DNA from: Candidatus Magasanikiibacteriota bacterium
GTDB taxonomy: Bacteria; Patescibacteriota; Patescibacteriia; Magasanikbacterales; UBA922
Assembly (NCBI GenBank): GCA_049287025.1
Contig: JBAQFA010000009.1
Location: forward strand, 24,802 to 88,801
Reading direction: 5' to 3'
Length of the DNA stretch: 64,000 nucleotides
Part shown: piece after piece, positions 3,528 to 61,706 of the stretch
Layout: each line of letters opens with the position of its first letter
Numbering within the stretch: position 1 is the stretch's first letter
The notes under the pieces: model-generated
The model's input: the letters and a program-made list of their open reading frames with translations, nothing else
Database searches by the model: none
Told to the model about the DNA's origin: nothing
Position numbers and translations under genes: made by a program

Positions 3528-3699
3528 AATTAGAATGATGCTAATATACGAATTGTACTAATGATACTAATAATAATTTGTATAGCATCGGTATAATTCG
3601 TATGAATTAGTATATTAGAATCGCATTATTTTTTAAAGTGAACCTATTTTAGCACATAATTATTTATTAAAAAATGGCTTAAAAAAGGCAAAAAGTGTA

Positions 3700-3730
3700 C
3701 ATAATGGGGACAAGCTGTGGATTGTGGGGA
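3700..3730. promoter_or_regulatory. DnaA-box cluster in the dnaA-rpmH divergent intergenic region
   Basis: TGTGGATtg and TGGGGATAA are each within 1-2 mismatches of TGTGGATAA. Further near-consensus boxes lie at 1938-1950 and 2117-2125. Confidence 0.5.
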
Positions 3731-3828
3731 TAAGTCATATTTGGGTGGTATGAATTGGAAGTATCTTTCTCTTGACAAAATTCCTCAAATCAATTATAAT
3801 CCTCTCACTAATTATAAATAATAATTTT

Positions 3829-4005
3829 ATGCCAAAAAGAACTTACCAACCAAAGAAACGTAAGAGAGCCAAATGTCATGGTTTTTTGTCTCGCATGGAA
3901 ACTAGCAATGGTAGAAATGTATTAAAGAGACGTAGAGACAAAGGCAGAAAAAAATTGACTGTTAGCGATGAGAAAAAAGGCAAGAGAACTAGAAAGACTC
4001 GCTAA
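3829..4005 (+). CDS. rpmH: 50S ribosomal protein L34, with an unusual ~13-aa basic C-terminal extension
   Basis: [45 protein letters not shown] is canonical L34. The ORF then continues ..[13 protein letters not shown]. Confidence 0.85.
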
Positions 4006-5997: not shown

Positions 5998-6471
5998 TTG
6001 TATATGAAAAATAAAATCCACCTAACAATTTATATTGTAATCGGTGGATTTTTTTTATTGTTGGATCAGTTGTTAAAATATTTGGCGCGGACTAATTCTG
6101 ATTTTAGTTTTTATCTTTGGAAAAATTGGTTGGGCTGGGAATATTTCCCCAATCCTGGCATTGCTTTTTCTTTACCCGTACCAAATTGGTTAGTAGTTAT
6201 TTTTACGCCAATAATTTTATTAGGATTATTTATTTGGATAAGACGAACACATAACACATATCACATATCACATATCACAAGACAGTTATCACTATTTTTT
6301 ATTATTGCTGGGGCGGTTTCAAATTACATTGATCGCGTATTATTCGGTGTCACTATAGATTATATTCGTATTCTTACTGGGGTAATAAATTTGGCGGATG
6401 TGATGATTGTGGTGGGGGTAGGGTTGTTATTGTTGGATGAAAGATTGAAGAAAATTAATATTAAACTTTAA
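5998..6471 (+). CDS. lspA: Lipoprotein signal peptidase II
   Basis: The motifs NPGIAFSL and AVSNYIDRV and a multi-TM topology are present. An in-frame (ATCACAT)x3 micro-repeat lies at 6250-6285. Confidence 0.8.
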   Translation: MYMKNKIHLTIYIVIGGFFLLLDQLLKYLARTNSDFSFYLWKNWLGWEYFPNPGIAFSLPVPNWLVVIFTPIILLGLFIWIRRTHNTYHISHITRQLSLFFIIAGAVSNYIDRVLFGVTIDYIRILTGVINLADVMIVVGVGLLLLDERLKKINIKL

Positions 6472-12458: not shown

Positions 12459-12616
12459 TTAAATCGTAAACTTGACTTATCATATAAAATATAGTATAAA
12501 TGTATGTCCGATAGACTTGTTGTCTGTCGTTTTGGTATATAAGGCAACTTTGCTTTGTTGTTGTGTGTGCTTGAGTGAACAACCATAATCCTTGGATGGG
12601 AGGTGAGACAGGGGAA

Positions 12617-13588
12617 ATGGCAAAGGATCTTTCGGAGAGAAAATTTCGAAGCACCGTGCGGTATGTGCGACGTCTATTGGGGGGTGGGACTGGTATTGTG
12701 ACTGCTCAACAGCTTCAGAAGGCTGGAAAACGAGCTCGCGGTCCTTTCTTTGACCCCAGAGACCATGGTCTGGTTCGTCCGTTCTTGGAGCGTGGAGCCG
12801 AAGAAGGACTCTGGGTGCTTGAGAACGGCGGTGGTCGGGCTGTCGTACCTGATGGTGTGTGGGAACAGTGGGATAGTCGTGGCGAGAGACGGCGTGAGGA
12901 ACGTCAGTCACAAGTTACGGCTCAAGCAGGAACCCGGCCAGCTTCAGTGCTGGCATCACTAGAGGAGGTCTCTATGACCGACGGTACGAAGAAGGGGGTG
13001 GGCGTATCCCCGAAAAATCCTATCTGGGTTTGGCTTCGGGCCAAGAAGGGTAGGTTGGGAGAGCTCATCGAGCTGTTCCAGGGGGTCCATGATGGTGCTC
13101 CGGTTCTCGCCAAGAAGGGTGGGGCTTTGAGTTTCCATTTTGCCCGCCCGCACCTAGTTCGGGGCCTGCAGAAGCTCGGGATGGAGCAGATCGACGATGG
13201 GTCAAAGATCCTGGCCACGGTCTTCTCCTACCTCGCCACGCCTGAGCAGGGGGTATTCGAGCGTGTGGGTTCTGGTGGGTACCCCCGCTACAAGCTCGGG
13301 CCGAAAGGGCAGAAGCTCTTGACCGAGGTCAGGAGCAGGGGCTCTGAGCCCATGCCACCGCCCGTTCCGTCCACGTCACCGACCGCTGCCCCCAGCCCGG
13401 GTGACCCGTTCGCCGAGGAGGAGGCCGCTCTCGTGGCCAAGCTCGAGGCGGTCCGTGCCAAACGCCGGCGCTTCATCGTGGTCGAGGACCTCGTGGTCAA
13501 GGCCATGAAGAAGGCCGGCATCGAGGGGACAGAGCAAGTTGAGTTCCTCAAGGCGCTCGTCAAAAAGCTCGGGGGTTCCTCCGAGTAG
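12617..13588 (+). CDS. Hypothetical protein encoded in a GC-rich foreign island
   Basis: About 323 aa. The segment is roughly 65-70% GC against roughly 38% in the flanks. A strong SD GGGAGGTGA precedes the ATG at 12617. The product has a basic N-terminus, a Pro/Ala-rich linker and a C-terminal helical domain. I recognise no domain. Confidence 0.5.
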   Translation: MAKDLSERKFRSTVRYVRRLLGGGTGIVTAQQLQKAGKRARGPFFDPRDHGLVRPFLERGAEEGLWVLENGGGRAVVPDGVWEQWDSRGERRREERQSQVTAQAGTRPASVLASLEEVSMTDGTKKGVGVSPKNPIWVWLRAKKGRLGELIELFQGVHDGAPVLAKKGGALSFHFARPHLVRGLQKLGMEQIDDGSKILATVFSYLATPEQGVFERVGSGGYPRYKLGPKGQKLLTEVRSRGSEPMPPPVPSTSPTAAPSPGDPFAEEEAALVAKLEAVRAKRRRFIVVEDLVVKAMKKAGIEGTEQVEFLKALVKKLGGSSE

Positions 13589-19670: not shown

Positions 19671-19689
19671 ATAAAATTGTAATTAGTAA

Positions 19690-19790
19690 TTAGTAAATAG
19701 TAATTGTGGTGTATTCGTATAGATTTTGGATTATATATAATAATTTGGAAATATAAAATTACTATTTACAATTTACTAATTACAAAACAA
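19690..19790. repeat. Large imperfect inverted repeat with arms of about 30 bp
   Basis: TTGTAATTAGTAATTAGTAAATAGTAATTGT ... AATTACTATTTACAATTTACTAATTACAA. Confidence 0.6.
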
Positions 19791-26299: not shown

Positions 26300-26542
26300 A
26301 AATTAGTAATTAGGTTTTAGTAAAACATTCTAATATGGTATGTAATATTATACTTTTATTTTTATCTACAATCAATATGTGGATATGGCATTAGTTGTCC
26401 TTACTTTTTGTAACCAATCCCGATTTTATCGGGACAAACAGTTTCGCCCCCGGACCCCCTTGGTGAGTTTGCTTGGTTTTAATTAATAATAAACCTTACA
26501 AGGTTTATTATGTGTTTCGTGGTTTGTGGTTTGTGGTTTGTG

Positions 26543-30254: not shown

Positions 30255-31049
30255 TTATTTTTTCTTTTTGGCAAGTTGAGAGAGTGGTACGGCCGTATTC
30301 CAAGCTAGTTCATATAGCGCTTTTAGAATTTTTACCAAAGATGTACTTTCTATCATTACACCAATTTTGTGTGGTTTATGAGTGACGAAGACAATTTTTG
30401 ATTCAAAAATATTAATTTCACCAAAAAAGTCCTCAATTCCTGGTAGTTGATTAGGTTTAAGCCATTTAATATGAGTATAAGTCATTGATCCTTTATAATT
30501 CGTCATCCAAGTTCTAGCTGTAGGTGTATCCAAAGCAATAATACGTTCATGAATTTTACGTTTACTGCGTTCACGATTATAGCCTTCACCCCAAGTTTTG
30601 AATTCCGGCCAACTCCAGCCTTCAAAATCGGCAATAGAAAGAATTTCGGTTTTTGAATCTAAGCTCTCCCAATAAATATTTTTTAAACCCTGGGTACCTT
30701 CTTGATATTTGATAACTGGCTTTTCGGCAAACTTATAAATCGAAAATAATTTTGGTAAAACTTTTTCTACATTTAATAATTTATCTTCCCATTGCTTTTT
30801 TTTGTTTTTAATATGTTGAACCAGACGCCCTGGATTTTCCGAAGTATAAATCATTTTCGATCCTTTGCCAGTCGCGCGATCTACCAAACCATACCAACCT
30901 AACTTTTCCAAAGCATAATAACCAAGCGTTCGGTTGATACCAGCTTTTTTGGTTATCTCGGCTACAGTAGCAGGACCAAGTTCGAGCAAGGCTAAATATA
31001 CTTTGCCTTCGGTTTCATCTAAACCTAATTGACTGATTAAATCTTTCAT
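30255..31049 (-). CDS. TrmB-family regulator paralog B
   Basis: N-terminus LGLDETEGKVYLALLELGPATVAEITKKAGINRTLGYYALEKLGWYGLV. The C-terminus is ..ILKALYELAWNTA..LAKKKK. Confidence 0.75.
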   Translation of the reverse strand: MKDLISQLGLDETEGKVYLALLELGPATVAEITKKAGINRTLGYYALEKLGWYGLVDRATGKGSKMIYTSENPGRLVQHIKNKKKQWEDKLLNVEKVLPKLFSIYKFAEKPVIKYQEGTQGLKNIYWESLDSKTEILSIADFEGWSWPEFKTWGEGYNRERSKRKIHERIIALDTPTARTWMTNYKGSMTYTHIKWLKPNQLPGIEDFFGEINIFESKIVFVTHKPHKIGVMIESTSLVKILKALYELAWNTAVPLSQLAKKKK

Positions 31050-31781: not shown

Positions 31782-31808
31782 CGGAGAGGTAGGCGTAGGC
31801 CGGCGCGT
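31782..31808 (+). repeat. Box A, GGCGTAGGCCGGCGCGTGAGCTCGGCA, copy 1
   Basis: This 27-mer appears five times in the window, always 20-60 nt downstream of a GC-rich cassette. Confidence 0.7.
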
Positions 31809-31838
31809 GAGCTCGGCACCGTGCGCCCGACACATTCA

Positions 31839-31928: not shown

Positions 31929-32732
31929 TTATTTTTTCTTTTTACTAGTTTTAGCAAGCGGTGTAGCTGTAATCCACGCCAGTTCAAAAATCGCTTTTAA
32001 AATATTAGATAAAGCCGTGCTTTCTATAATTATGCCAATAGGGATTGGTTTCTTGAATAAAGCCATCATTACTTTATTATCATAAATATTAATTTCACCA
32101 CCTAAATCTTTGATAGTTGGTACTTGTTCGGGTTTTATCCAGCGATAATTAATATATTTTTTTGATCCTTGATAATGTTTCATCCAATCTCTTCCTTCGG
32201 GTGTATCTAAAACCAAAACGCGTTCAGAAATTTTTCTTTTACTACGTTCGCGGGTATATTCTTTGCCCCATTTAAAAAGATTAAACTCTGGTGTATACCA
32301 AGCTTGCAAATCCAAGACTGATAAAATTTCTGATTTGGCTTCTAAAGTTTCCCAATAAATATTTTTGGCACCCTCAACACCTTCTTGAAATCTAACGCTG
32401 GGTTTTTCGGCCACGGTATAGAGTAAATAAAAATCTGGCAATTGTGATTCTAATTCTTTTTCTTTTCTTTCCCAAGTATTAATTTTTGATTTTACAAAAT
32501 GTTTTAAATTTTTGGGATCTTTGGCTACAAATTGAATGCGTTTCTTTTGTCCAGAAGAACGATTGACTAGGCCAAACCAACCAAGTTTTTCTAGGGCATG
32601 ATAACAAAGGGTGTGACCAATGCCAGCTTTGCGGGCAATGGCGCTGGCGCCAGAAGGTCCAAGTTGTAAAAGGGCAATATAGACTTTGGCTTCTGTTTCT
32701 TCAAAGCCAATGCTTTTAAGAATTTCTAACAT
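31929..32732 (-). CDS. TrmB-family regulator paralog C
   Basis: N-terminus IGFEETEAKVYIALLQLGPSGASAIARKAGIGHTLCYHALEKLGWFGLV. The C-terminus is ..ILKAIFELAWITA..KKKK. Confidence 0.75.
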   Translation of the reverse strand: MLEILKSIGFEETEAKVYIALLQLGPSGASAIARKAGIGHTLCYHALEKLGWFGLVNRSSGQKKRIQFVAKDPKNLKHFVKSKINTWERKEKELESQLPDFYLLYTVAEKPSVRFQEGVEGAKNIYWETLEAKSEILSVLDLQAWYTPEFNLFKWGKEYTRERSKRKISERVLVLDTPEGRDWMKHYQGSKKYINYRWIKPEQVPTIKDLGGEINIYDNKVMMALFKKPIPIGIIIESTALSNILKAIFELAWITATPLAKTSKKKK

Positions 32733-33334: not shown

Positions 33335-33480
33335 GGCGTAGGCCGACGCGTGAGCTCGGCATTCCATTTTTGTCCAAAATATTATTTTTTGCATAAAGAT
33401 GGAGGCGCTCTTTAAAAACAAACAATCCGCACTGGTGGTGTTGGTTGAAGAGATATAGTTCTGACTTAACGGAGGCTAGA
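33335..33480 (+). repeat. Inter-cassette element R, copy 1: box A, hairpin 1, box C, hairpin 2, leader-like with SD
   Basis: Box A spans 33335-33361. Hairpin 1 is CCATTTTTG..CATAAAGATGG at 33364-33402. Box C is GCGCTCTTTAAAAACAAACAA. Hairpin 2 is CaCTGGTGGTGttG. It is more than 85% identical to copy 2 at 34177-34339. Confidence 0.7.
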
Positions 33481-34176: not shown

Positions 34177-34339
34177 CGTAGGCCGGCGCGTTAGCTCGGC
34201 ATTCCATCTTTGTATAAAAATAATTTTATATAAAGATGGTTGTCGCTCTTTAAAAACAAACAACTAACACTGGTGGTGTTGGTTGGTGATATATAAAAAG
34301 GACTGGTGGCGGACACAACCCTTGGAGAAGGAGTTGAAA
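34177..34339 (+). repeat. Inter-cassette element R, copy 2
   Basis: Box A spans 34177-34202. Hairpin 1 is the perfect palindrome CCATCTTTGTATAAAAATAATTTTATATAAAGATGG at 34205-34240. Box C, hairpin 2 (CAACtAACACtggtgGTGTTgGTTG) and the SD GAAGGAG follow. Confidence 0.7.
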
Positions 34340-34799: not shown

Positions 34800-34890
34800 C
34801 GTAGGCCGGCGCGTGAGCTCGGCAATCTCCTTTTTCGCGAAAGAAAGAGCAAAAAAGATCCAGTAAAACTGGGCTTTTTTGTTTGTGGAT
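34800..34890 (+). terminator. Box A (copy 4) followed by an intrinsic terminator. This is the end of the cassette array.
   Basis: CGTAGGCCGGCGCGTGAGCTCGGCA, then AAAACTGGGCTTTTTTGTTTG. Confidence 0.6.
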
Positions 34891-39149: not shown

Positions 39150-39279
39150 TTACCCAAACTTGACAATTAGCCTAGAATAATATATAATCCGAGCAATCTT
39201 AAATTATGGTTCTCAGCTGTAATTTAGGAAGGCTCTCAAATAATTAAAATTTATAATTTAAAATTGAAAATTTACAAGT

Positions 39280-40574: not shown

Positions 40575-40753
40575 ATTTTTTTTGTAATCCCGATCCCGAC
40601 TAAGTCGGGAGAGGGATCCCTTTTTAATGCATTTTAACTTGTAATATAAAGAATTTTATTTAGTTAGATGTTTTTTGTTTTGAAAAGGGATTCTTCACTT
40701 CCTCTTCCACTTCATTTCACTCAGTGTCAGAGTCCGTTCAGAATGACAGACGG

Positions 40754-43429: not shown

Positions 43430-43616
43430 AAGAAGTAAGACTTAGGACATAGGATTATTATGGGAGTATTGTAGCATTAAAAGAGTAAGGAATAAAGAGT
43501 AAGGAATAAGGAATAAAAATTAAAGGCTTACTGGGCTCACAAAGCTGACAAGGCTTACTAAAATTAAACTAAAATGTGATATAAATTTAACAAAAATCCG
43601 CCGAAGAGGCGGATTG

Positions 43617-47656: not shown

Positions 47657-47677
47657 CGTTTGTCGACAAGTCGAGAT

Positions 47678-47704
47678 GCCGAGCTCACGCGCCGGCCTAC
47701 GCCT
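47678..47704 (-). repeat. Box A copy 5, on the minus strand, downstream of cassette 7
   Basis: The reverse complement reads GGCGTAGGCCGGCGCGTGAGCTCGGCA. A GTCGAC..GTCGAG mini-hairpin sits next to it. Confidence 0.7.
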
Positions 47705-48974: not shown

Positions 48975-49763
48975 ATGGAAAAAAATAATTTAGAAAAATT
49001 AATAGATTTGGGTCTACAAGAAAATGAAGCCAAAATATATTTGGCTTTGTTGGAATTGGGAAAAGGCAATGTGACCGAAATTAGTCGGCGCGCAGGATTG
49101 AACCGGACGACGGGTTATGATATTTTGGAACGTCTTGGTTTACATGGTATGGTGAACCGCGCCAGAGTGGGTAGTAAAAAAATTATTTATGTGGCCGAAC
49201 CGCCATCACATTTGCGTCAGTACTTGGAAGACAAAAAACGCGCCATGGAAAGACGGATGGAAGAATTAAATGATTTGTTGCCAGATTTGCAATCACTTTA
49301 TAAAACTGATATTAAACCAGTTATAAAATTTGCCGAAGGGAAAAGTGAAATGCAAAAATTGTATTTGAATGTTTTGGATGCGAAGAGTGAAGTTTATTCA
49401 ATTCTTAATTTAAAAGGTTATGCCGAAGTTTTTGATGAACTGGGTGCTTATCAATCCAAAGAACGACATAAAAAAGGCATAAAAGAAAAAGTTTTGGCTA
49501 TAAAAAATGATACCGCTCTGTGGTGGTATAATAAAACTTATAAAAATAAAACTGCCAAGGATAAAAAGTTAACCGAATATCGCTGGCTAGAAGATGCGGA
49601 AAAGTATTCTACCGCCGGAGAAGTAAATATTTTTGATGATAAAGTAATTGGTGTATTATCCAAACCAAGTGAAAATGTGGCATTTGAAATTCAATCACAG
49701 ACATTTGCGGATTTTTTGAAATTAGTTTTTGAAATGGCGTGGAAGAATAGTGAACAAAAATAA
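48975..49763 (+). CDS. TrmB-family regulator paralog D
   Basis: N-terminus LGLQENEAKIYLALLELGKGNVTEISRRAGLNRTTGYDILERLGLHGMV. The C-terminus is ..FLKLVFEMAWKNS. It is divergent from cassettes 6-7. Confidence 0.75.
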   Translation: MEKNNLEKLIDLGLQENEAKIYLALLELGKGNVTEISRRAGLNRTTGYDILERLGLHGMVNRARVGSKKIIYVAEPPSHLRQYLEDKKRAMERRMEELNDLLPDLQSLYKTDIKPVIKFAEGKSEMQKLYLNVLDAKSEVYSILNLKGYAEVFDELGAYQSKERHKKGIKEKVLAIKNDTALWWYNKTYKNKTAKDKKLTEYRWLEDAEKYSTAGEVNIFDDKVIGVLSKPSENVAFEIQSQTFADFLKLVFEMAWKNSEQK

Positions 49764-56341: not shown

Positions 56342-57085
56342 ATGAGTAATAAATATAACAAAAATTTCATTGGAAAGGTTGCTTTTCGTTTAGATTTCTC
56401 CGAAAATGTTGCAATTGGTTCATTGAAAGATCTTCATGAAGAAATAAATGATGTTTTTTCAATAAAAGAAGAAAAAGAGAGTGTGACAGGGTTTGTTCAA
56501 TTAGATTTTAAGAGCGGTGAAATGAGAAATGAAACTGAAAAAATGGCTTCTTGGTTATTTAGCAATACAGAAAAAAATAAAAGAATGGAAATAAATTCGA
56601 GATTTTTGTATTTAGAATATGATAAATACAATGAAAAAACTGAACTATTTGACGATATAAAAAATGTAGTTCAAAAATTCATATCAAAATATAATATAAA
56701 AACTTTTAATCGTATTGGTTTAAGATTTATAAACGAAATAAAGTTACAAGAAAGTGAGCAACTGGATTGGACTAAATATATTGACAAAAACCTAATTGCT
56801 AATCTTATTTTTGTTAAAGATCAAAATAAAAAATTAGCTCGTGCAATGAGTGCCTTAGTTTTCAAAGAAGAAAAAGGTGATATAAATTTTAATTTTGGTA
56901 TTTGGAATAGTGAGTATCCAAACGAGGTTAACAGAAAGGAATTTGTATTAGACTATGATTGTTTTTCAAATTTAGGAATTTCTGATGATGAAGTTTTAGA
57001 ACGCACAGAGCAGTTTCATTCATATATTGAAAAACTATTTGAAGCAAGTATAACGGAAGAATTTAGAGGATTGTTAAATAAATAA
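56342..57085 (+). CDS. Hypothetical protein
   Basis: 247-aa ORF with no recognised motif. Confidence 0.4.
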   Translation: MSNKYNKNFIGKVAFRLDFSENVAIGSLKDLHEEINDVFSIKEEKESVTGFVQLDFKSGEMRNETEKMASWLFSNTEKNKRMEINSRFLYLEYDKYNEKTELFDDIKNVVQKFISKYNIKTFNRIGLRFINEIKLQESEQLDWTKYIDKNLIANLIFVKDQNKKLARAMSALVFKEEKGDINFNFGIWNSEYPNEVNRKEFVLDYDCFSNLGISDDEVLERTEQFHSYIEKLFEASITEEFRGLLNK

Positions 57086-57088
57086 AAT

Positions 57089-57289
57089 ATGAATAATAAT
57101 TACTCGCAACAGTCTGCCCAGACAGCAGGTTCAAATGACTCTGGTTATTTTGCAAAACAAAATAATTCTACAGTAACGAGTGATTATATAACTAAAACCA
57201 AGGAAACAGCTGAATTTGTAGTTGTTAATGGTTCAGGTTATTCACAAAGACAGGCAAGAATTGTGAAAAGTAAATATGTTAGAAAGTAA
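57089..57289 (+). CDS. Small hypothetical protein
   Basis: 66 aa, tightly spaced with neighbours on both sides. Confidence 0.3.
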   Translation: MNNNYSQQSAQTAGSNDSGYFAKQNNSTVTSDYITKTKETAEFVVVNGSGYSQRQARIVKSKYVRK

Positions 57290-57854
57290 TATTAAATCTT
57301 TTTATAAAAAACACAGCAAGGAGCGATTTTGCCAAGGTGATATTTTGAGAGATGTAAAAGTTTCAATTGACATTCCAATCGAATGGCAACAATCAGAGGG
57401 TAATACCACAGATTATGATTTACCGTATTGTGTTATTATGACACAAGATTGTGACTTGGATAGAGATTTCGAAAGTAAAAAAGGTGAAAAACTCACAAAC
57501 AACGACAAACATTTACCGACAATTTTAGTTTGTCCAGCATATCGTGATCTTCCTTTTTATGAGGGTAAACATCTTGTAGGCTGGAAAATGCAGGAATACA
57601 AAGGCAAGGCATTAGAAAAAATACAAAAAAACGATGAAATAAACAGGTGCCACTTTCTAAAAGGTGACAGTACCTTACAAATACCAAATCTTGTAATTGA
57701 CTTCAAACATTTCTACACATTGCCAACAAGTATACTTTATGAACAATACAACGATATTTATTTAGCAACTATAAATGAATTATTCAGAGAGAGGCTATCA
57801 CAACGTTTCGCTAATTATTTATCGAGATTTGGTTTGCCAGAATTAAAATCATAG
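57276..57854 (+). CDS. Hypothetical protein
   Basis: 192 aa. It overlaps the upstream ORF, which suggests a three-gene operon. Confidence 0.4.
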   Translation: MLESNIKSFYKKHSKERFCQGDILRDVKVSIDIPIEWQQSEGNTTDYDLPYCVIMTQDCDLDRDFESKKGEKLTNNDKHLPTILVCPAYRDLPFYEGKHLVGWKMQEYKGKALEKIQKNDEINRCHFLKGDSTLQIPNLVIDFKHFYTLPTSILYEQYNDIYLATINELFRERLSQRFANYLSRFGLPELKS

Positions 57855-57910
57855 ATAAAGATTTTATAAAATACGATAATATATAACCAGCTGATAAAGC
57901 TGGTTTATTA

Positions 57911-58100
57911 TTGCTAAATAAACATCAGTATGGTAAAATCATAATGCTAACCCACAACTTAATATACACAAGAATGAATGAGGTTCTCCTCATCTTTTGT
58001 CCGTTTGCGACCAGAGATGGGGTAGCAACCTTCCACAAACGGGCATTCTTGTGTTCGCAAAGTGGGTTAGCAGGTATGCTATCCCTTTTTTGTTTTTAAT
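57911..58100 (+). ncRNA. Candidate small RNA inside the integrative element
   Basis: A TTGCTA-17-TAAAAT promoter spans 57911-57945. The downstream region is structured (CCGTTTG..CAAACGG) and ends in GTATGCTATCCCTTTTTTGTTTTT. The only ORF here (57911-58099) looks spurious. Confidence 0.3.
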
Positions 58101-58228
58101 TTAATAAAAGATTACACAGTCTTTTACAATTTTACACAAAAATTGGACAAAATTGGACAAAAATCATTCAAGTTCATACACAAATTACGGGTTTCACATT
58201 AACCCGACTAATTATTAACATAGATTAT

Positions 58229-58744
58229 ATGAAAAAATGTCAGTTTTGTGCTGAAGAAGTGCAAGATGAAGCCATAGTATGTAAACACTGTGGCAAAGAA
58301 TTAAATAAGCAGGCTGTAAAAAAGAAGGAGTATAATTGGACATTTCGCAAAATTAGTTGTGCGGTTATATTAGTCCCAGTAGTCTTGATTTTTGTAATTA
58401 CCATGGCGGGCGGATGCAATAATTCTAAATCAACCCCAACAGATAGTGCATTATCAAACGTGGGCGTTGGACAGGAAGGTTTCTTACGTACGAGTGATAC
58501 TGGTGCGGATGTTTTGTTAGCTACTTCAGAAAAATCATTTGATGATTTAATTAATGCATCGGTTGCAAAAGATACAATTGGTATGGCACAAATTGTCCTT
58601 AATGGTAATGCTTTTTACATCCCTTATAACACAAAAGTATTAGTGATCGAGTCTTCTTTTGCTAAAAGAAAAGTACGTATTTTGGAAGGTGAGAAAGTAG
58701 GCGAAACTGGTTGGATACCCTATGAGTTTGTTGTTGCAAAATAA
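58229..58744 (+). CDS. Zinc-ribbon membrane protein, hypothetical
   Basis: N-terminal CxxC-16-CxxC, one TM helix, and a C-terminal beta domain. Confidence 0.45.
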   Translation: MKKCQFCAEEVQDEAIVCKHCGKELNKQAVKKKEYNWTFRKISCAVILVPVVLIFVITMAGGCNNSKSTPTDSALSNVGVGQEGFLRTSDTGADVLLATSEKSFDDLINASVAKDTIGMAQIVLNGNAFYIPYNTKVLVIESSFAKRKVRILEGEKVGETGWIPYEFVVAK

Positions 58745-58804: not shown

Positions 58805-60442
58805 ATGACAACCACACAAGATTTGTACAAAATGATCGGAACTGCACAACAGCAGGAAGAAGATAAGGATGACGTTTCAAAATATCGATACGTTATTTAT
58901 GCTCGAAAATCTACAGATGATAAAGAAAAACAAATCAGATCATTAGGTGATCAAATTAAAGAATGTAAGGATTATGCTGAAAGAAATGGACTTAGATGTT
59001 TACCGAAACCAATAACGGAGTCAGAGTCTGCCAAGGAACCAGACATAAGGCCAGAGTTTAAGAAATTAATTGATGACATTAAAAAAGCTAAATATGATGG
59101 TATTTTGGCTTGGCATCCAGACCGTTTGGCCAGAAATATGAAGGATGCTGGAGAGATAATAGATCTGTTGGATAAAAAGATAGTGAAAGACCTAAAATTC
59201 GTAACATTTACGTTTGAGAACAATACAATGGGTAAAATGTTGTTAGGGATGGCTTTCGTGCTGTCTAAGCAGTATTCTGACGCTTTAAGTGATAATGTAA
59301 AACGAGGAACAAGTAGAAGTATTGAAGAAGGTAGATGGTTGAACAAAGCTAAACATGGTTATTATAAAGATCGTAATCAAATACTGCATCCAGATGGTAG
59401 ATTTTTTAATCTGATTGAGAATATTTTTAGGATGAGAATAGATAATAAAAGTTTGGATGATATAGCTGATTATTTGAATGAAAATAGATATTGTTGTGCC
59501 CCACCTTCTAAGAATGAAGCTGACCGTAGCCCATTTCAAATGACCAAACAGATCGTCTCTAAAATTGTGAGAGACCCATTTTACACTGGCATTCTTAAGT
59601 ATGGAGAAAACAAGGTTGATTTAACTGAAATTTATGACTTTACTCCTGCTGTAAGTGTGGATGATTTTCTGAAAATAAACAACTTTTCTGATATTGAAAA
59701 AGCTCTAAAATTAACTGGAAAAATTTATAAAGACAACGCAATCAAGGCAGATTTGATGAGAGGAATGATAATTTGTGGTGAATGTGATGGAAGTATGACA
59801 TCTGGAATTACTCCTAAAAAAACAAAAAATGGTAAAACTAATTATTTTTATTACAGATGTGATAACCCTGTTTGTAAAAATAAAGGTAAGTCTATAAGGG
59901 CAAAAGTAATTATTGACTTTGCCTGTCAATATTTGGAAAAAAACAAATTTACCTCTCATTCTATATATGGGCATTATATCCAAGAAATGAAAAAAGTTGT
60001 AATGGAAAAAGAGAGGTCTCTCATACAAAAAATTCGTTCATTGACGGAGACCAGAGTACACAAAAAAAATCAATTTGAAAAGACAAAAAAATCTCTTATA
60101 CAAGAGACTGACGAAGACATCAAGGGTTTTTTTAAGGAAGATTTGAAACAATTAGAAAAGGACATCAATAATTTAGAAACCGAAATAGATGAATTGAAAG
60201 ATGAGAAAGAAAGAAATAATAGCGTCACGCTGACTTACTCAGAATACCTTGAACTGTTCAATAATTTAGCTGAGCGTATTAAAAAAATAGGCGTTATGGA
60301 AGACCTAAATTTTATAATGAAAAAAATCTTCTTGAACTTTACTATAAAAGAGGGAAAAGTGGCTCTATATACACTAAACTCCCCATTCGGGGAGTTCGTG
60401 AAAGACCGTATTGTCTTGACATGTCGGGGTGAAAGGACTTGA
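58805..60442 (+). CDS. Large serine recombinase with resolvase N-terminus, recombinase domain, zinc ribbon and coiled coil
   Basis: YVIYARKSTDDKEKQIRSLGDQI places the catalytic Ser in a resolvase-type N-terminal domain. The central recombinase domain has a Cys cluster (CGECDG..C..C). The C-terminal coiled coil is typical of phiC31/TnpX-type integrases. Confidence 0.85.
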   Translation: MTTTQDLYKMIGTAQQQEEDKDDVSKYRYVIYARKSTDDKEKQIRSLGDQIKECKDYAERNGLRCLPKPITESESAKEPDIRPEFKKLIDDIKKAKYDGILAWHPDRLARNMKDAGEIIDLLDKKIVKDLKFVTFTFENNTMGKMLLGMAFVLSKQYSDALSDNVKRGTSRSIEEGRWLNKAKHGYYKDRNQILHPDGRFFNLIENIFRMRIDNKSLDDIADYLNENRYCCAPPSKNEADRSPFQMTKQIVSKIVRDPFYTGILKYGENKVDLTEIYDFTPAVSVDDFLKINNFSDIEKALKLTGKIYKDNAIKADLMRGMIICGECDGSMTSGITPKKTKNGKTNYFYYRCDNPVCKNKGKSIRAKVIIDFACQYLEKNKFTSHSIYGHYIQEMKKVVMEKERSLIQKIRSLTETRVHKKNQFEKTKKSLIQETDEDIKGFFKEDLKQLEKDINNLETEIDELKDEKERNNSVTLTYSEYLELFNNLAERIKKIGVMEDLNFIMKKIFLNFTIKEGKVALYTLNSPFGEFVKDRIVLTCRGERT

Positions 60443-60497
60443 ACCTTCGGCCTCCTGGTCCCAAACCAGGCGCTCTAGCCAACTGAGCTACACCCCG
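60424..60497 (-). tRNA. tRNA-Pro(TGG)
   Basis: Acceptor CGGGGTG/CACCCCG, anticodon loop TTTGGGA, T-loop GGTTCAAGTCC. Its 3' end overlaps the recombinase stop region. Confidence 0.75.
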
Positions 60498-61239: not shown

Positions 61240-61312
61240 ATTTTAGCTTATTGACAAAAAGTGAACTTATTGTTAAAATAAATTCACTTTTTTATTTAAA
61301 CAAGCGGGTATC

Positions 61313-61586
61313 ACCCTCCTTCGTCCATCCTTCGCTAATGCTTCGGAGGACTACGGATGGGCAAGTATAACGGTTATTACCTGCCCGACATGCCTGATGG
61401 CAATCAAGGTAGGTGGGTCCGAGTTTTCTCCCGCCCCGAGGGCGGGATCCCTCTGTGGAGGGACAAACTCATGAAAGAAAATTAATTTTACAATTTAACA
61501 CGCGGGTATCATATATGTTCCATATATAATACTCCTCGTTCGGAAGAGCGAAAATAAATTTTCTCTCTTCACTCACTGCGGGTATC
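61313..61586 (+). repeat. Fragmentary duplications of the tRNA-Gly 5' half, interleaved with GC-rich hairpins
   Basis: GCGGGTATCA recurs at 61313, 61511 and 61587. ATAACGGTTATTA recurs at 61366 and 61601. TCCGAGTTTTC recurs at 61427 and 61611. Hairpins between them include CCATCC..GGATGG and CCCGCCCCGAGGGCGGG. Confidence 0.55.
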
Positions 61587-61658
61587 ATATAACGGTTATT
61601 ATCCGAGTTTTCCAAACTCGTGAAAGGAGTTCGACTCTCCTTACCCGCTCATTGTCAA
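61587..61658 (+). tRNA. tRNA-Gly(TCC)
   Basis: Acceptor GCGGGTA/TACCCGC, D-arm ATAT-AACGGTTA-TTAT, anticodon stem CGAGT/ACTCG, loop TTTCCAA, T-arm AGGAG-TTCGACT-CTCCT, discriminator U. Confidence 0.7.
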
Positions 61659-61706
61659 ACTTCGCTTAAACAGCGGAGTTTTTATATTTTTATCTATATG
61701 ATATAA

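Follow-up and report, generated by a model that had tools for sequence, protein, structure and literature searches.

Degenerate partial copies of tRNA-Gly(UCC) and GC-rich palindromic repeats in the leader of a tRNA-Gly gene of Candidatus Magasanikbacteria

Rickettsia palindromic elements (RPE) are dispersed palindromes of about 100-150 bp in an AT-rich reduced genome; they occur between genes, in RNA genes and in-frame in proteins, where they form a surface loop, and they have no recognisable transposase. They were reportedly described by Ogata et al. in 2000. The REP/BIME elements and the GC clusters of yeast mitochondria are short GC-rich hairpins, often paired and dispersed, with complementary arms; the GC clusters stand out against the AT-rich genome, while REPs are extragenic and linked to the RAYT transposase. 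Repeats of the E. coli tyrT/rtT type are 3'-end tRNA fragments downstream of the gene, for which unequal recombination is held responsible. When an element integrates into a tRNA gene, it is as a rule the 3' part of the gene that is restored, not the 5' part, and Williams is said to have pointed out in 2002 that some tyrosine integrases cross over at the anticodon loop. Self-splicing group I introns are located at positions 35/36 of tRNA-Asn and tRNA-Asp in Patescibacteria (PMC13011429).

The window (the whole stretch of 64,000 nucleotides that was analysed) contained a tRNA-Gly(UCC) transcription unit with partial tRNA copies and GC-rich hairpins ahead of the gene. On balance, the locus probably consists of decayed tandem tRNA-Gly duplicates in the leader that were colonised by small selfish palindromic repeats. 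The hairpin module of these repeats resembled RPE in being dispersed in an AT-rich reduced genome, in its intergenic, RNA-gene and in-frame sites and in having no recognisable transposase among the 10 ORFs of the window that were scanned; however, the CPR module measured 30-50 nt (two GC-rich hairpins of 15-25 nt), compared with about 100-150 bp, and its host phylum was Patescibacteria. Like REP/BIME elements and yeast mitochondrial GC clusters, it was made of short, paired, dispersed GC-rich hairpins with complementary arms; unlike the extragenic REPs, it also lay inside ORFs, and no RAYT was seen. The likeness to RPE and REP is one of behaviour only. The literature search returned no description of palindromic repeats in CPR genomes, the one pertinent paper being that on group I introns (PMC13011429); this is absence of evidence only, and RPE-like palindromic repeat families of Patescibacteria are apparently undescribed.

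The tRNA copies resembled the E. coli tRNA-linked repeats in being partial tandem repeats within a tRNA transcription unit that are ascribed to unequal recombination; however, they were 5' parts with the leader, they lay upstream of the gene, and one of them carried foreign inserts. Duplications at the att sites of tRNA islands likewise leave a tRNA gene accompanied by partial copies of itself, but in islands the 3' part is duplicated and kilobases of cargo and an integrase lie between the copies, and neither holds at the window locus. The group I introns of Patescibacteria (PMC13011429) share with insert I3 of this locus the phylum and the anticodon-loop point, and both escape standard annotation; I3, in contrast, measures 35 nt, forms a double hairpin within a tRNA-Gly copy that is truncated, and gave no match to an intron model.

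Organisation of the tRNA-Gly(UCC) transcription unit

A single promoter-to-terminator unit (61251-61691) contained three head-to-tail units, each composed of a leader and a tRNA 5' end (Table 1). The promoter listed was the only strong one upstream of all three units, and the sole terminator was located 3' of tRNA-Gly(UCC). A similar leader of about 28 nt preceded each unit: leader 1 recurred with 76% identity at 61474-61501 and partially at 61551-61569. The three units would be transcribed as one RNA, from which RNase P would remove the whole leader at +1 of the true tRNA-Gly.

Table 1. Features of the tRNA-Gly(UCC) locus and related elements of the window
Feature	Position	Strand	Basis or description
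GC-rich hairpin TCCCGATTTTATCGGGA, single, of the I3 family, followed by CAAAC	26418-26434		intergenic; structure-aware search
Palindromes CGTAGGCCGGCGCGTGAGCTCGGCA	31794-31818, 33337-33361, 34177-34201, 34800-34824	+	
Palindrome CGTAGGCCGGCGCGTGAGCTCGGCA	47677-47701	-	
I3 family: TCCCGA, TCCCGACTAAGTCGGGA and GAGGGATCCC	40588-40622		intergenic; structure-aware search
Serine recombinase	58805-60442	+	Resolvase, Recombinase and Zn-ribbon domains (Pfam)
Sigma-70-type promoter TTGACA-17-TAAAAT	61251-61279	+	11/12 consensus positions; TG extension
Leader 1	61276-61303	+	repeat comparison with 61474-61501 and 61551-61569
Unit 1, pseudo-tRNA-Gly	61304-61477	+	tRNA positions 1-10, 11-24, 25-35, 36-49
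Insert I1, 52 nt	61314-61365	+	between tRNA positions 10/11
Insert I2, 38 nt	61380-61417	+	between tRNA positions 24/25
Insert I3, 35 nt	61429-61463	+	between anticodon-loop positions 35/36
Unit 2	61502-61577	+	tRNA 5' end and its own complement, then a second hairpin
tRNA-Gly(UCC), functional	61578-61650	+	ARAGORN and Rfam, 53.5 bits
Intrinsic terminator	61657-61691	+	terminator prediction

The initial annotation had placed a tRNA-Gly gene at 61587-61658, with recurrences of its 5' end, D arm and anticodon-stem start and with GC-rich hairpins upstream. All of these features were present, but its coordinates were 9 nt too high, the gene itself being placed at 61578-61650 by both ARAGORN and Rfam. 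The 5' end recurred as GCGGGTATCA at 61304-61313 and as GCGGGTATCATATA at 61502-61515, the D arm as TATAACGGTTATTA at 61366-61379, and the start of the anticodon stem as TCCGAGTTTTC at 61418-61428. Its hairpins corresponded to CCATCC..GGATGG inside I1 and to TCCCGCCCCGAGGGCGGGA and TCCCTCTGTGGAGGGA, which make up the stretch of I3.

In unit 1, the pieces GCGGGTATCA, TATAACGGTTATTA and TCCGAGTTTTC represented tRNA positions 1-10, 11-24 and 25-35. A fourth colinear piece, CAAACTCATGAAAG at 61464-61477, which was absent from the initial annotation, matched positions 36-49 in 13 of 14 bases. Since the four pieces stand in order, unit 1 is one interrupted copy of positions 1-48 and not a set of scattered fragments. 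It ended at position 48/49, just before the T stem, and had neither the T arm nor the 3' acceptor strand. Of the two forms of a disrupted second tRNA copy that had been envisaged, a pseudo-tRNA was thus supported for unit 1, with its colinear positions 1-48, its missing T arm and its three inserts. No target duplication was found at I1, I2 or I3, and a BLAST search for further copies of the three inserts in the 64-kb window returned only short chance words. Unit 1 is presumed to have no function, and the stretch 61304-61577 should be labelled in annotation as pseudo-tRNA and repeat, not as a gene.

The fragment matches, for which the initial annotation had considered a chance origin, far exceeded what chance would give. 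When identical stretches of 9 nt or longer were counted, 49 upstream bases were covered by matches to the tRNA; 2000 dinucleotide shuffles gave 0.7 on average and never more than 19. By the same score, five of the seven other tRNAs of the window gave 0, tRNA-Phe gave 9 and tRNA-Pro gave 30, the last through similarity to the D arm of tRNA-Ala, its neighbour.

Unit 2 was composed of two hairpins. In hairpin 1, the tRNA 5' end at 61504-61516 paired with its complement at 61522-61534, 5 nt later; in hairpin 2, 61543-61555 paired with 61558-61570 over 13 bp. The spacer between them was CTCGTTCG, and CACTCACT followed hairpin 2.

Rfam scans of the window and seven related loci, at the gathering score and at E up to 10, returned tRNAs only and otherwise noise, and no curated covariance model of a cis-regulatory leader or a small RNA matched. 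The group I intron and tmRNA models that had been suggested for this region were among those without a match. tmRNA, RNase P RNA, SRP RNA and hammerhead (judged by eye) were rejected as candidates, having no model match or conserved core sequence, and so was a T-box, which had neither.

Families of the hairpin inserts

I3 consisted of TCCCGCC-CCGAG-GGCGGGA followed by TCCCTC-TGTG-GAGGGA, so that the module could be written as TCCCGnn..nnCGGGA twice. JGI metagenomes were searched for the module with the pattern TTCTCCCG..CGGGATCCC..GGGACAAA, the TTC and CAAA flanks being imposed, and 25 loci were obtained. Four of these were tRNA-Gly loci (L115, L119, L122 and L126), and the others were unrelated places. 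The module lay in long ORFs at 14 of the 25 loci (8 sense, 6 antisense), all of them on other CPR contigs and not in this window, and the genes with the module inside included those of UvrD, Mur ligases, triosephosphate isomerase (TIM), RNase R, KsgA and glycosyltransferases. The core length was a multiple of 3 in 12 of the 14 ORF copies, compared with one of six tRNA copies. In TIM and KsgA, comparison with solved structures showed that the module formed an extra loop of 9-11 residues; TIM homologues that had diverged to the same degree (66-70% identity to the query) included some with the loop and some that lacked it. Being in-frame, in either orientation, inside CPR housekeeping genes, the I3 module behaves in an RPE-like manner, as an element selfish at the DNA level.

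Among 52 hairpins of the family, stems of 5-9 bp were found in nearly all; the arms were complementary and the arm sequences differed. The tRNA-associated copies were more alike than the remaining copies. In the tRNA-Gly(UCC) copy, I3 was placed between the TTC and the CAAA of the anticodon loop. About 10 of the non-tRNA copies were embedded in (AAATTCC)n arrays, which contain the TTC/CAAA join, as does the UUCCAAA anticodon loop. Since the TTC and CAAA flanks were set by the search pattern, no target preference can be derived from the 25 loci; among five unselected single hairpins, CAAAC was found 3' of two, and TTC directly 5' of none.

Members of the I3 family were located at three places in the window: unit 1 and the two intergenic sites at 26418 and 40588 (Table 1). 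The last two were detectable by structure-aware search only and were missed by BLAST. None of the GC-rich spikes within ORFs of the window was palindromic, and these are therefore probably ordinary coding sequence. Neither the split-tRNA pattern nor the tRNA 3' end nor the I3 module was matched in viral contigs.

In two RNase R genes that have diverged from each other (L112, 972-1013, and L127), the double hairpin occupied the same site, with identical stems and different loops. The shared site and stems point to an old, retained insertion, and suggest a constraint on either the peptide or the hairpin.

The I1 family was defined by the core CCTTCGC-loop-CTACGG..GG.CAAG and by shared ends. Relatives of I1 were found in L104, L114 (two), L126 and L128 (two), which gave a family of five contigs including the window. 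One of the L114 copies stood after the first 12-14 nt of a 5' fragment of tRNA-Asn.

On the minus strand of L114 (5469-5890), tRNA-Asn was preceded by two copies of the leader and its first 12-13 nt. The fragments were separated by I1-type and I3-type elements and by about 150 nt of moderately GC-rich sequence, and the promoter-like heptad region was duplicated too. In L091 (2555-2625), a 5' fragment of tRNA-Met, CGCGGGATAG, lay 68 nt upstream of the real tRNA-Met; it was followed by the hairpin TCCCGACTTAGTCGGGA (TCCCGAC..GTCGGGA), in place of the D arm, and by CGTTGGG, the start of the anticodon stem. The tRNA-Asn and tRNA-Met cases showed that the association of a dead 5' copy with a hairpin is not peculiar to tRNA-Gly.

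The I2 hairpin was formed by CCTGCC..GGTAGG around TGCC-TGAT-GGCA. No clear relative of I2 was present in about 850 kb of sequence compared; its arm CCTGCC appears to bear a weak resemblance to the palindrome CCTGCCTGCCGGCAGGCAGG of L104 and L110. In L110, the TIM gene had a second extra loop at codons ~224-240 (LLDSSRQAGG, encoded by CCAGGCAGGCAGGCGG), and the palindrome CCTGCCTGCCGGTAGG was located just upstream of the gene (2258-2274). Both resembled the 20-nt insert in the D loop of the L104 pseudo-tRNA, and, judging from these similarities, the palindromes of L110 and L104 may be a third repeat family.

Related loci and alternative explanations

A scan of GTDB species genomes for MgtC gave distant relatives only, at most 60% identical; close relatives were gathered from a protein database and contig look-ups, and 12 lineages were sampled via MgtC synteny. 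The MgtC protein encoded upstream in the window was identical to one that NCBI assigns to a Candidatus Magasanikiibacteriota MAG. The order MgtC, promoter, tRNA-Gly(UCC) was conserved in Candidatus Magasanikbacteria, with the promoter at the same position after MgtC. Units were present in five of the 12 lineages, and in seven the tRNA came straight after the promoter. The closest relative, L083, had an MgtC 96% identical and an identical tRNA, and it had no units. The tRNA-Gly was identical in the window, L083 and L088.

The content of the leader differed between lineages. L088 had two unit 2-type units, L132 had one, and in L122 the order was unit 2, unit 1 and then the tRNA. Unit 1-type copies were also found in L099, L115, L104 and L122, and I3 relatives occupied positions 35/36 in those of L099, L104 and L122. 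The L099 copy was composed of positions 1-35, an I3 relative, positions 36-49 and T7, with no other insert, and matched its own tRNA in 49 of 49 bases; L115 was the same as L099. In L104, positions 1-12 were followed by another 20-nt GC insert at 12/13, positions 13-35, an I3 relative and positions 36-41, and a separate upstream fragment carried the 3' part of I1. In L119 and L126, a full tRNA-Gly stood ahead of a 3' fragment that derived from another allele and held an I3 relative in its anticodon loop. The tRNA-like parts matched the local tRNA in each genome, though the tRNAs differed between genomes, and truncation just before the T stem was common to the window, L099 and L122. The comparison of related genomes that the initial annotation had recommended thus showed modules that are shared and recur in shuffled form, with number, order and inserts not shared, and a closest relative without any of them.

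According to the preferred explanation, decayed duplicates colonised by palindromic repeats, a tandem partial duplication of the leader and the 5' part of the tRNA would have produced two degenerate head-to-tail copies between promoter and gene. Copy 1, with positions 1-48 and no T arm, would have been dead and hence unprotected by selection, so that small GC-rich palindromic repeats could settle there: I1 after position 10, I2 after position 24 and I3 at 35/36. Insertion is a more probable origin of these inserts than formation on the spot. Because the repeated tRNA 5' ends permit recombination, units could be gained, lost and reshuffled between lineages. The variable inserts of the window, L104 and L099, the unit-free L083, the ORF copies on either strand and the frame constraint are more in keeping with an element that acts at the DNA level than with a conserved RNA. 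No site was found both empty and filled among near-identical strains, and Pfam revealed no transposase among 10 ORFs of the window; the hairpin repeats are presumed to be mobile.

Core enzymes would gain peptide loops from such repeat families, which would also settle in tRNA pseudo-copies. The families would account for part of the unexplained protein insertions of CPR and for mis-annotation around tRNA genes, and would give markers of strain-level genome dynamics. CPR genomes are tiny and streamlined, so retained junk is unexpected in them. For unit 1, the shared truncation, the near-perfect match to the local tRNA and the likeness of the tRNA-associated I3 copies could mean long-term retention and hence function.

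A broader account is possible, and we offer it tentatively: the GC-rich hairpins would be undescribed 30-50-nt palindromic mobile families, Patescibacteria-wide, and unit 2 would be a decoy/anti-5'-strand leader that gates the folding of pre-tRNA-Gly. The repeats would then enter sites such as the TTC/CAAA join with no duplication of the target, would mark dead tRNA copies, and would be tolerated in-frame in the essential genes of TIM, KsgA, RNase R, Mur ligases and UvrD.

Unit 2 itself is probably more than debris, as it recurs in six lineages with compensatory changes. Unit 2-type units were found in the window, L088 (two), L119, L122, L126 (two) and L132, directly before tRNA-Gly in the six lineages and, within the sequence compared, solely ahead of tRNA-Gly. 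In an alignment of seven units, 98% of cells in the hairpins were paired and nine pairs were changed on both sides; none of 500 shuffles reached the observed pairing, and slid controls were 43-71% paired. A pyrimidine-pyrimidine mismatch occupied the same place of hairpin 2 in four of the seven units. In L132, where the local tRNA has the variant C6, the decoy had followed it, with a compensating change in the arm opposite. A CUCGY that follows the complementary arm could pair with the GCGGG of the tRNA, and RNAalifold likewise paired CUCGY with the next GCGGG. The co-transcribed structured leader proposed as a third reading in the initial annotation is plausible in this light, with a promoter ahead of all three units, a terminator after the tRNA and covarying hairpins in unit 2.

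That unit 2 or the whole leader is a cis-acting RNA controlling the folding, processing or stability of pre-tRNA-Gly is nevertheless doubtful. The arm 61522-61534 is complementary both to the decoy copy and to positions 3-15 of the true tRNA, so that a switch is conceivable in which it would pair with either and thereby set the correctly folded fraction. The whole-transcript fold (z = -7.6), in which the first GCGGGUA pairs with the 3' acceptor strand of the tRNA, would also agree with a leader acting on the tRNA; however, the minimum-free-energy and centroid structures differed for unit 1 and for the whole transcript, and single-sequence folds were therefore not used as support. Units were absent in seven of the 12 synteny-sampled lineages, the closest relative included, where the tRNA was identical or similar. 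The copy number of unit 2 varied from 0 to 2, and its order relative to unit 1 was reversed in L122. The covariation was drawn from seven or eight related unit 2 sequences, complementary arms are also maintained by palindromic DNA elements, and Rfam gave no match to a known regulatory family. If unit 2 were a regulator, it would be one of the rare structured leaders that act on the precursor of a bacterial tRNA.

It is very unlikely that the fragments are att-site scars left by repeated integration and excision of elements targeting tRNA-Gly, which was the first reading of the initial annotation. In its favour, L119 and L126 have a full tRNA-Gly with a 3' fragment of a different allele that carries I3 precisely in the anticodon loop, L088 has a second copy of the last 15 nt of the tRNA 154 nt downstream, and a large serine recombinase lies 1.1 kb upstream of the window locus. 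However, the repeats of the window were 5' pieces, colinear parts of one copy, and no ORF or cargo lay between them from 61304 to 61578. The 3' 21 nt of the tRNA had no second copy in 64 kb, even with three mismatches, and the recombinase was located beyond MgtC and a tRNA cluster and was also present in the unit-free L083. For this window, the att-scar reading has thus been refuted to a large extent. Mobile DNA probably had a part in the locus all the same: I3 and I1, and hence two or more of the inserts, are members of dispersed palindromic families.

It is hardly credible that unit 1 is a split tRNA gene or one that contains introns, with inserts that would be spliced out and 5' two-thirds that would be joined to a 3' part: I3 lies at 35/36, the position of the Patescibacteria group I introns (PMC13011429), and every insert is a self-contained hairpin, but the 3' third (T arm and 3' acceptor strand) is missing from unit 1 and does not occur elsewhere in the window, the inserts (35-52 nt) are far below group I size, the Rfam intron models gave no match at E up to 10, position 35 is C whereas the P1 G-U pair requires U, unit 1 is followed at a distance of 100 nt by a complete tRNA-Gly(UCC), and the I3 module keeps the reading frame inside ORFs, which splicing would not demand. 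The placement of I3 at the intron position is put down to coincidence, in position or in the accessibility of the loop.

Other elements of the window and of related contigs

The 3' end of the serine recombinase gene overlapped the 3' end of the convergent tRNA-Pro (60423-60497, minus strand), and the same arrangement was present in L083. The recombinase and tRNA-Pro are probably the edge of an integrated element that reaches leftwards and includes an HTH protein (55814) and ORFs of unknown function (56342-58744). In L088, tRNA-Gly was located at 3662-3734 and the repeat of its last 15 nt at about 3888-3902, followed by a small ORF and a Fic-domain gene; this is an att-like 3' repeat of the conventional kind, and it may mark the border of a small island.

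A 25-nt GC-rich imperfect palindrome, CGTAGGCCGGCGCGTGAGCTCGGCA, with a GTAG head as in REP elements, was present in five copies with 0-1 mismatch (Table 1). The region holding these copies also contained three TrmB-like paralogues (30255-31049, 31929-32732 and 48975-49763), and the palindrome might serve as a shared operator or belong to the REP-type repeats.

The ORF at 12575-13588, which encodes 337 aa and had no Pfam match, contained many windows of at least 70% GC at 12811-13493, while the GC content of the whole 64-kb window was 36%; the ORF may be foreign DNA or encode a low-complexity protein. Tandem arrays of 7-nt units were located at 6248-6279, 19675-19705, 26511-26542, 39244-39274 and 43486-43516. 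These arrays were mostly intergenic and had about 4.4-4.6 copies each, with a unit that differed per array. On other CPR contigs, (AAATTCC)n heptad arrays flanked I3-type hairpins, also within ORFs, and the arrays of the window may be a related phenomenon.
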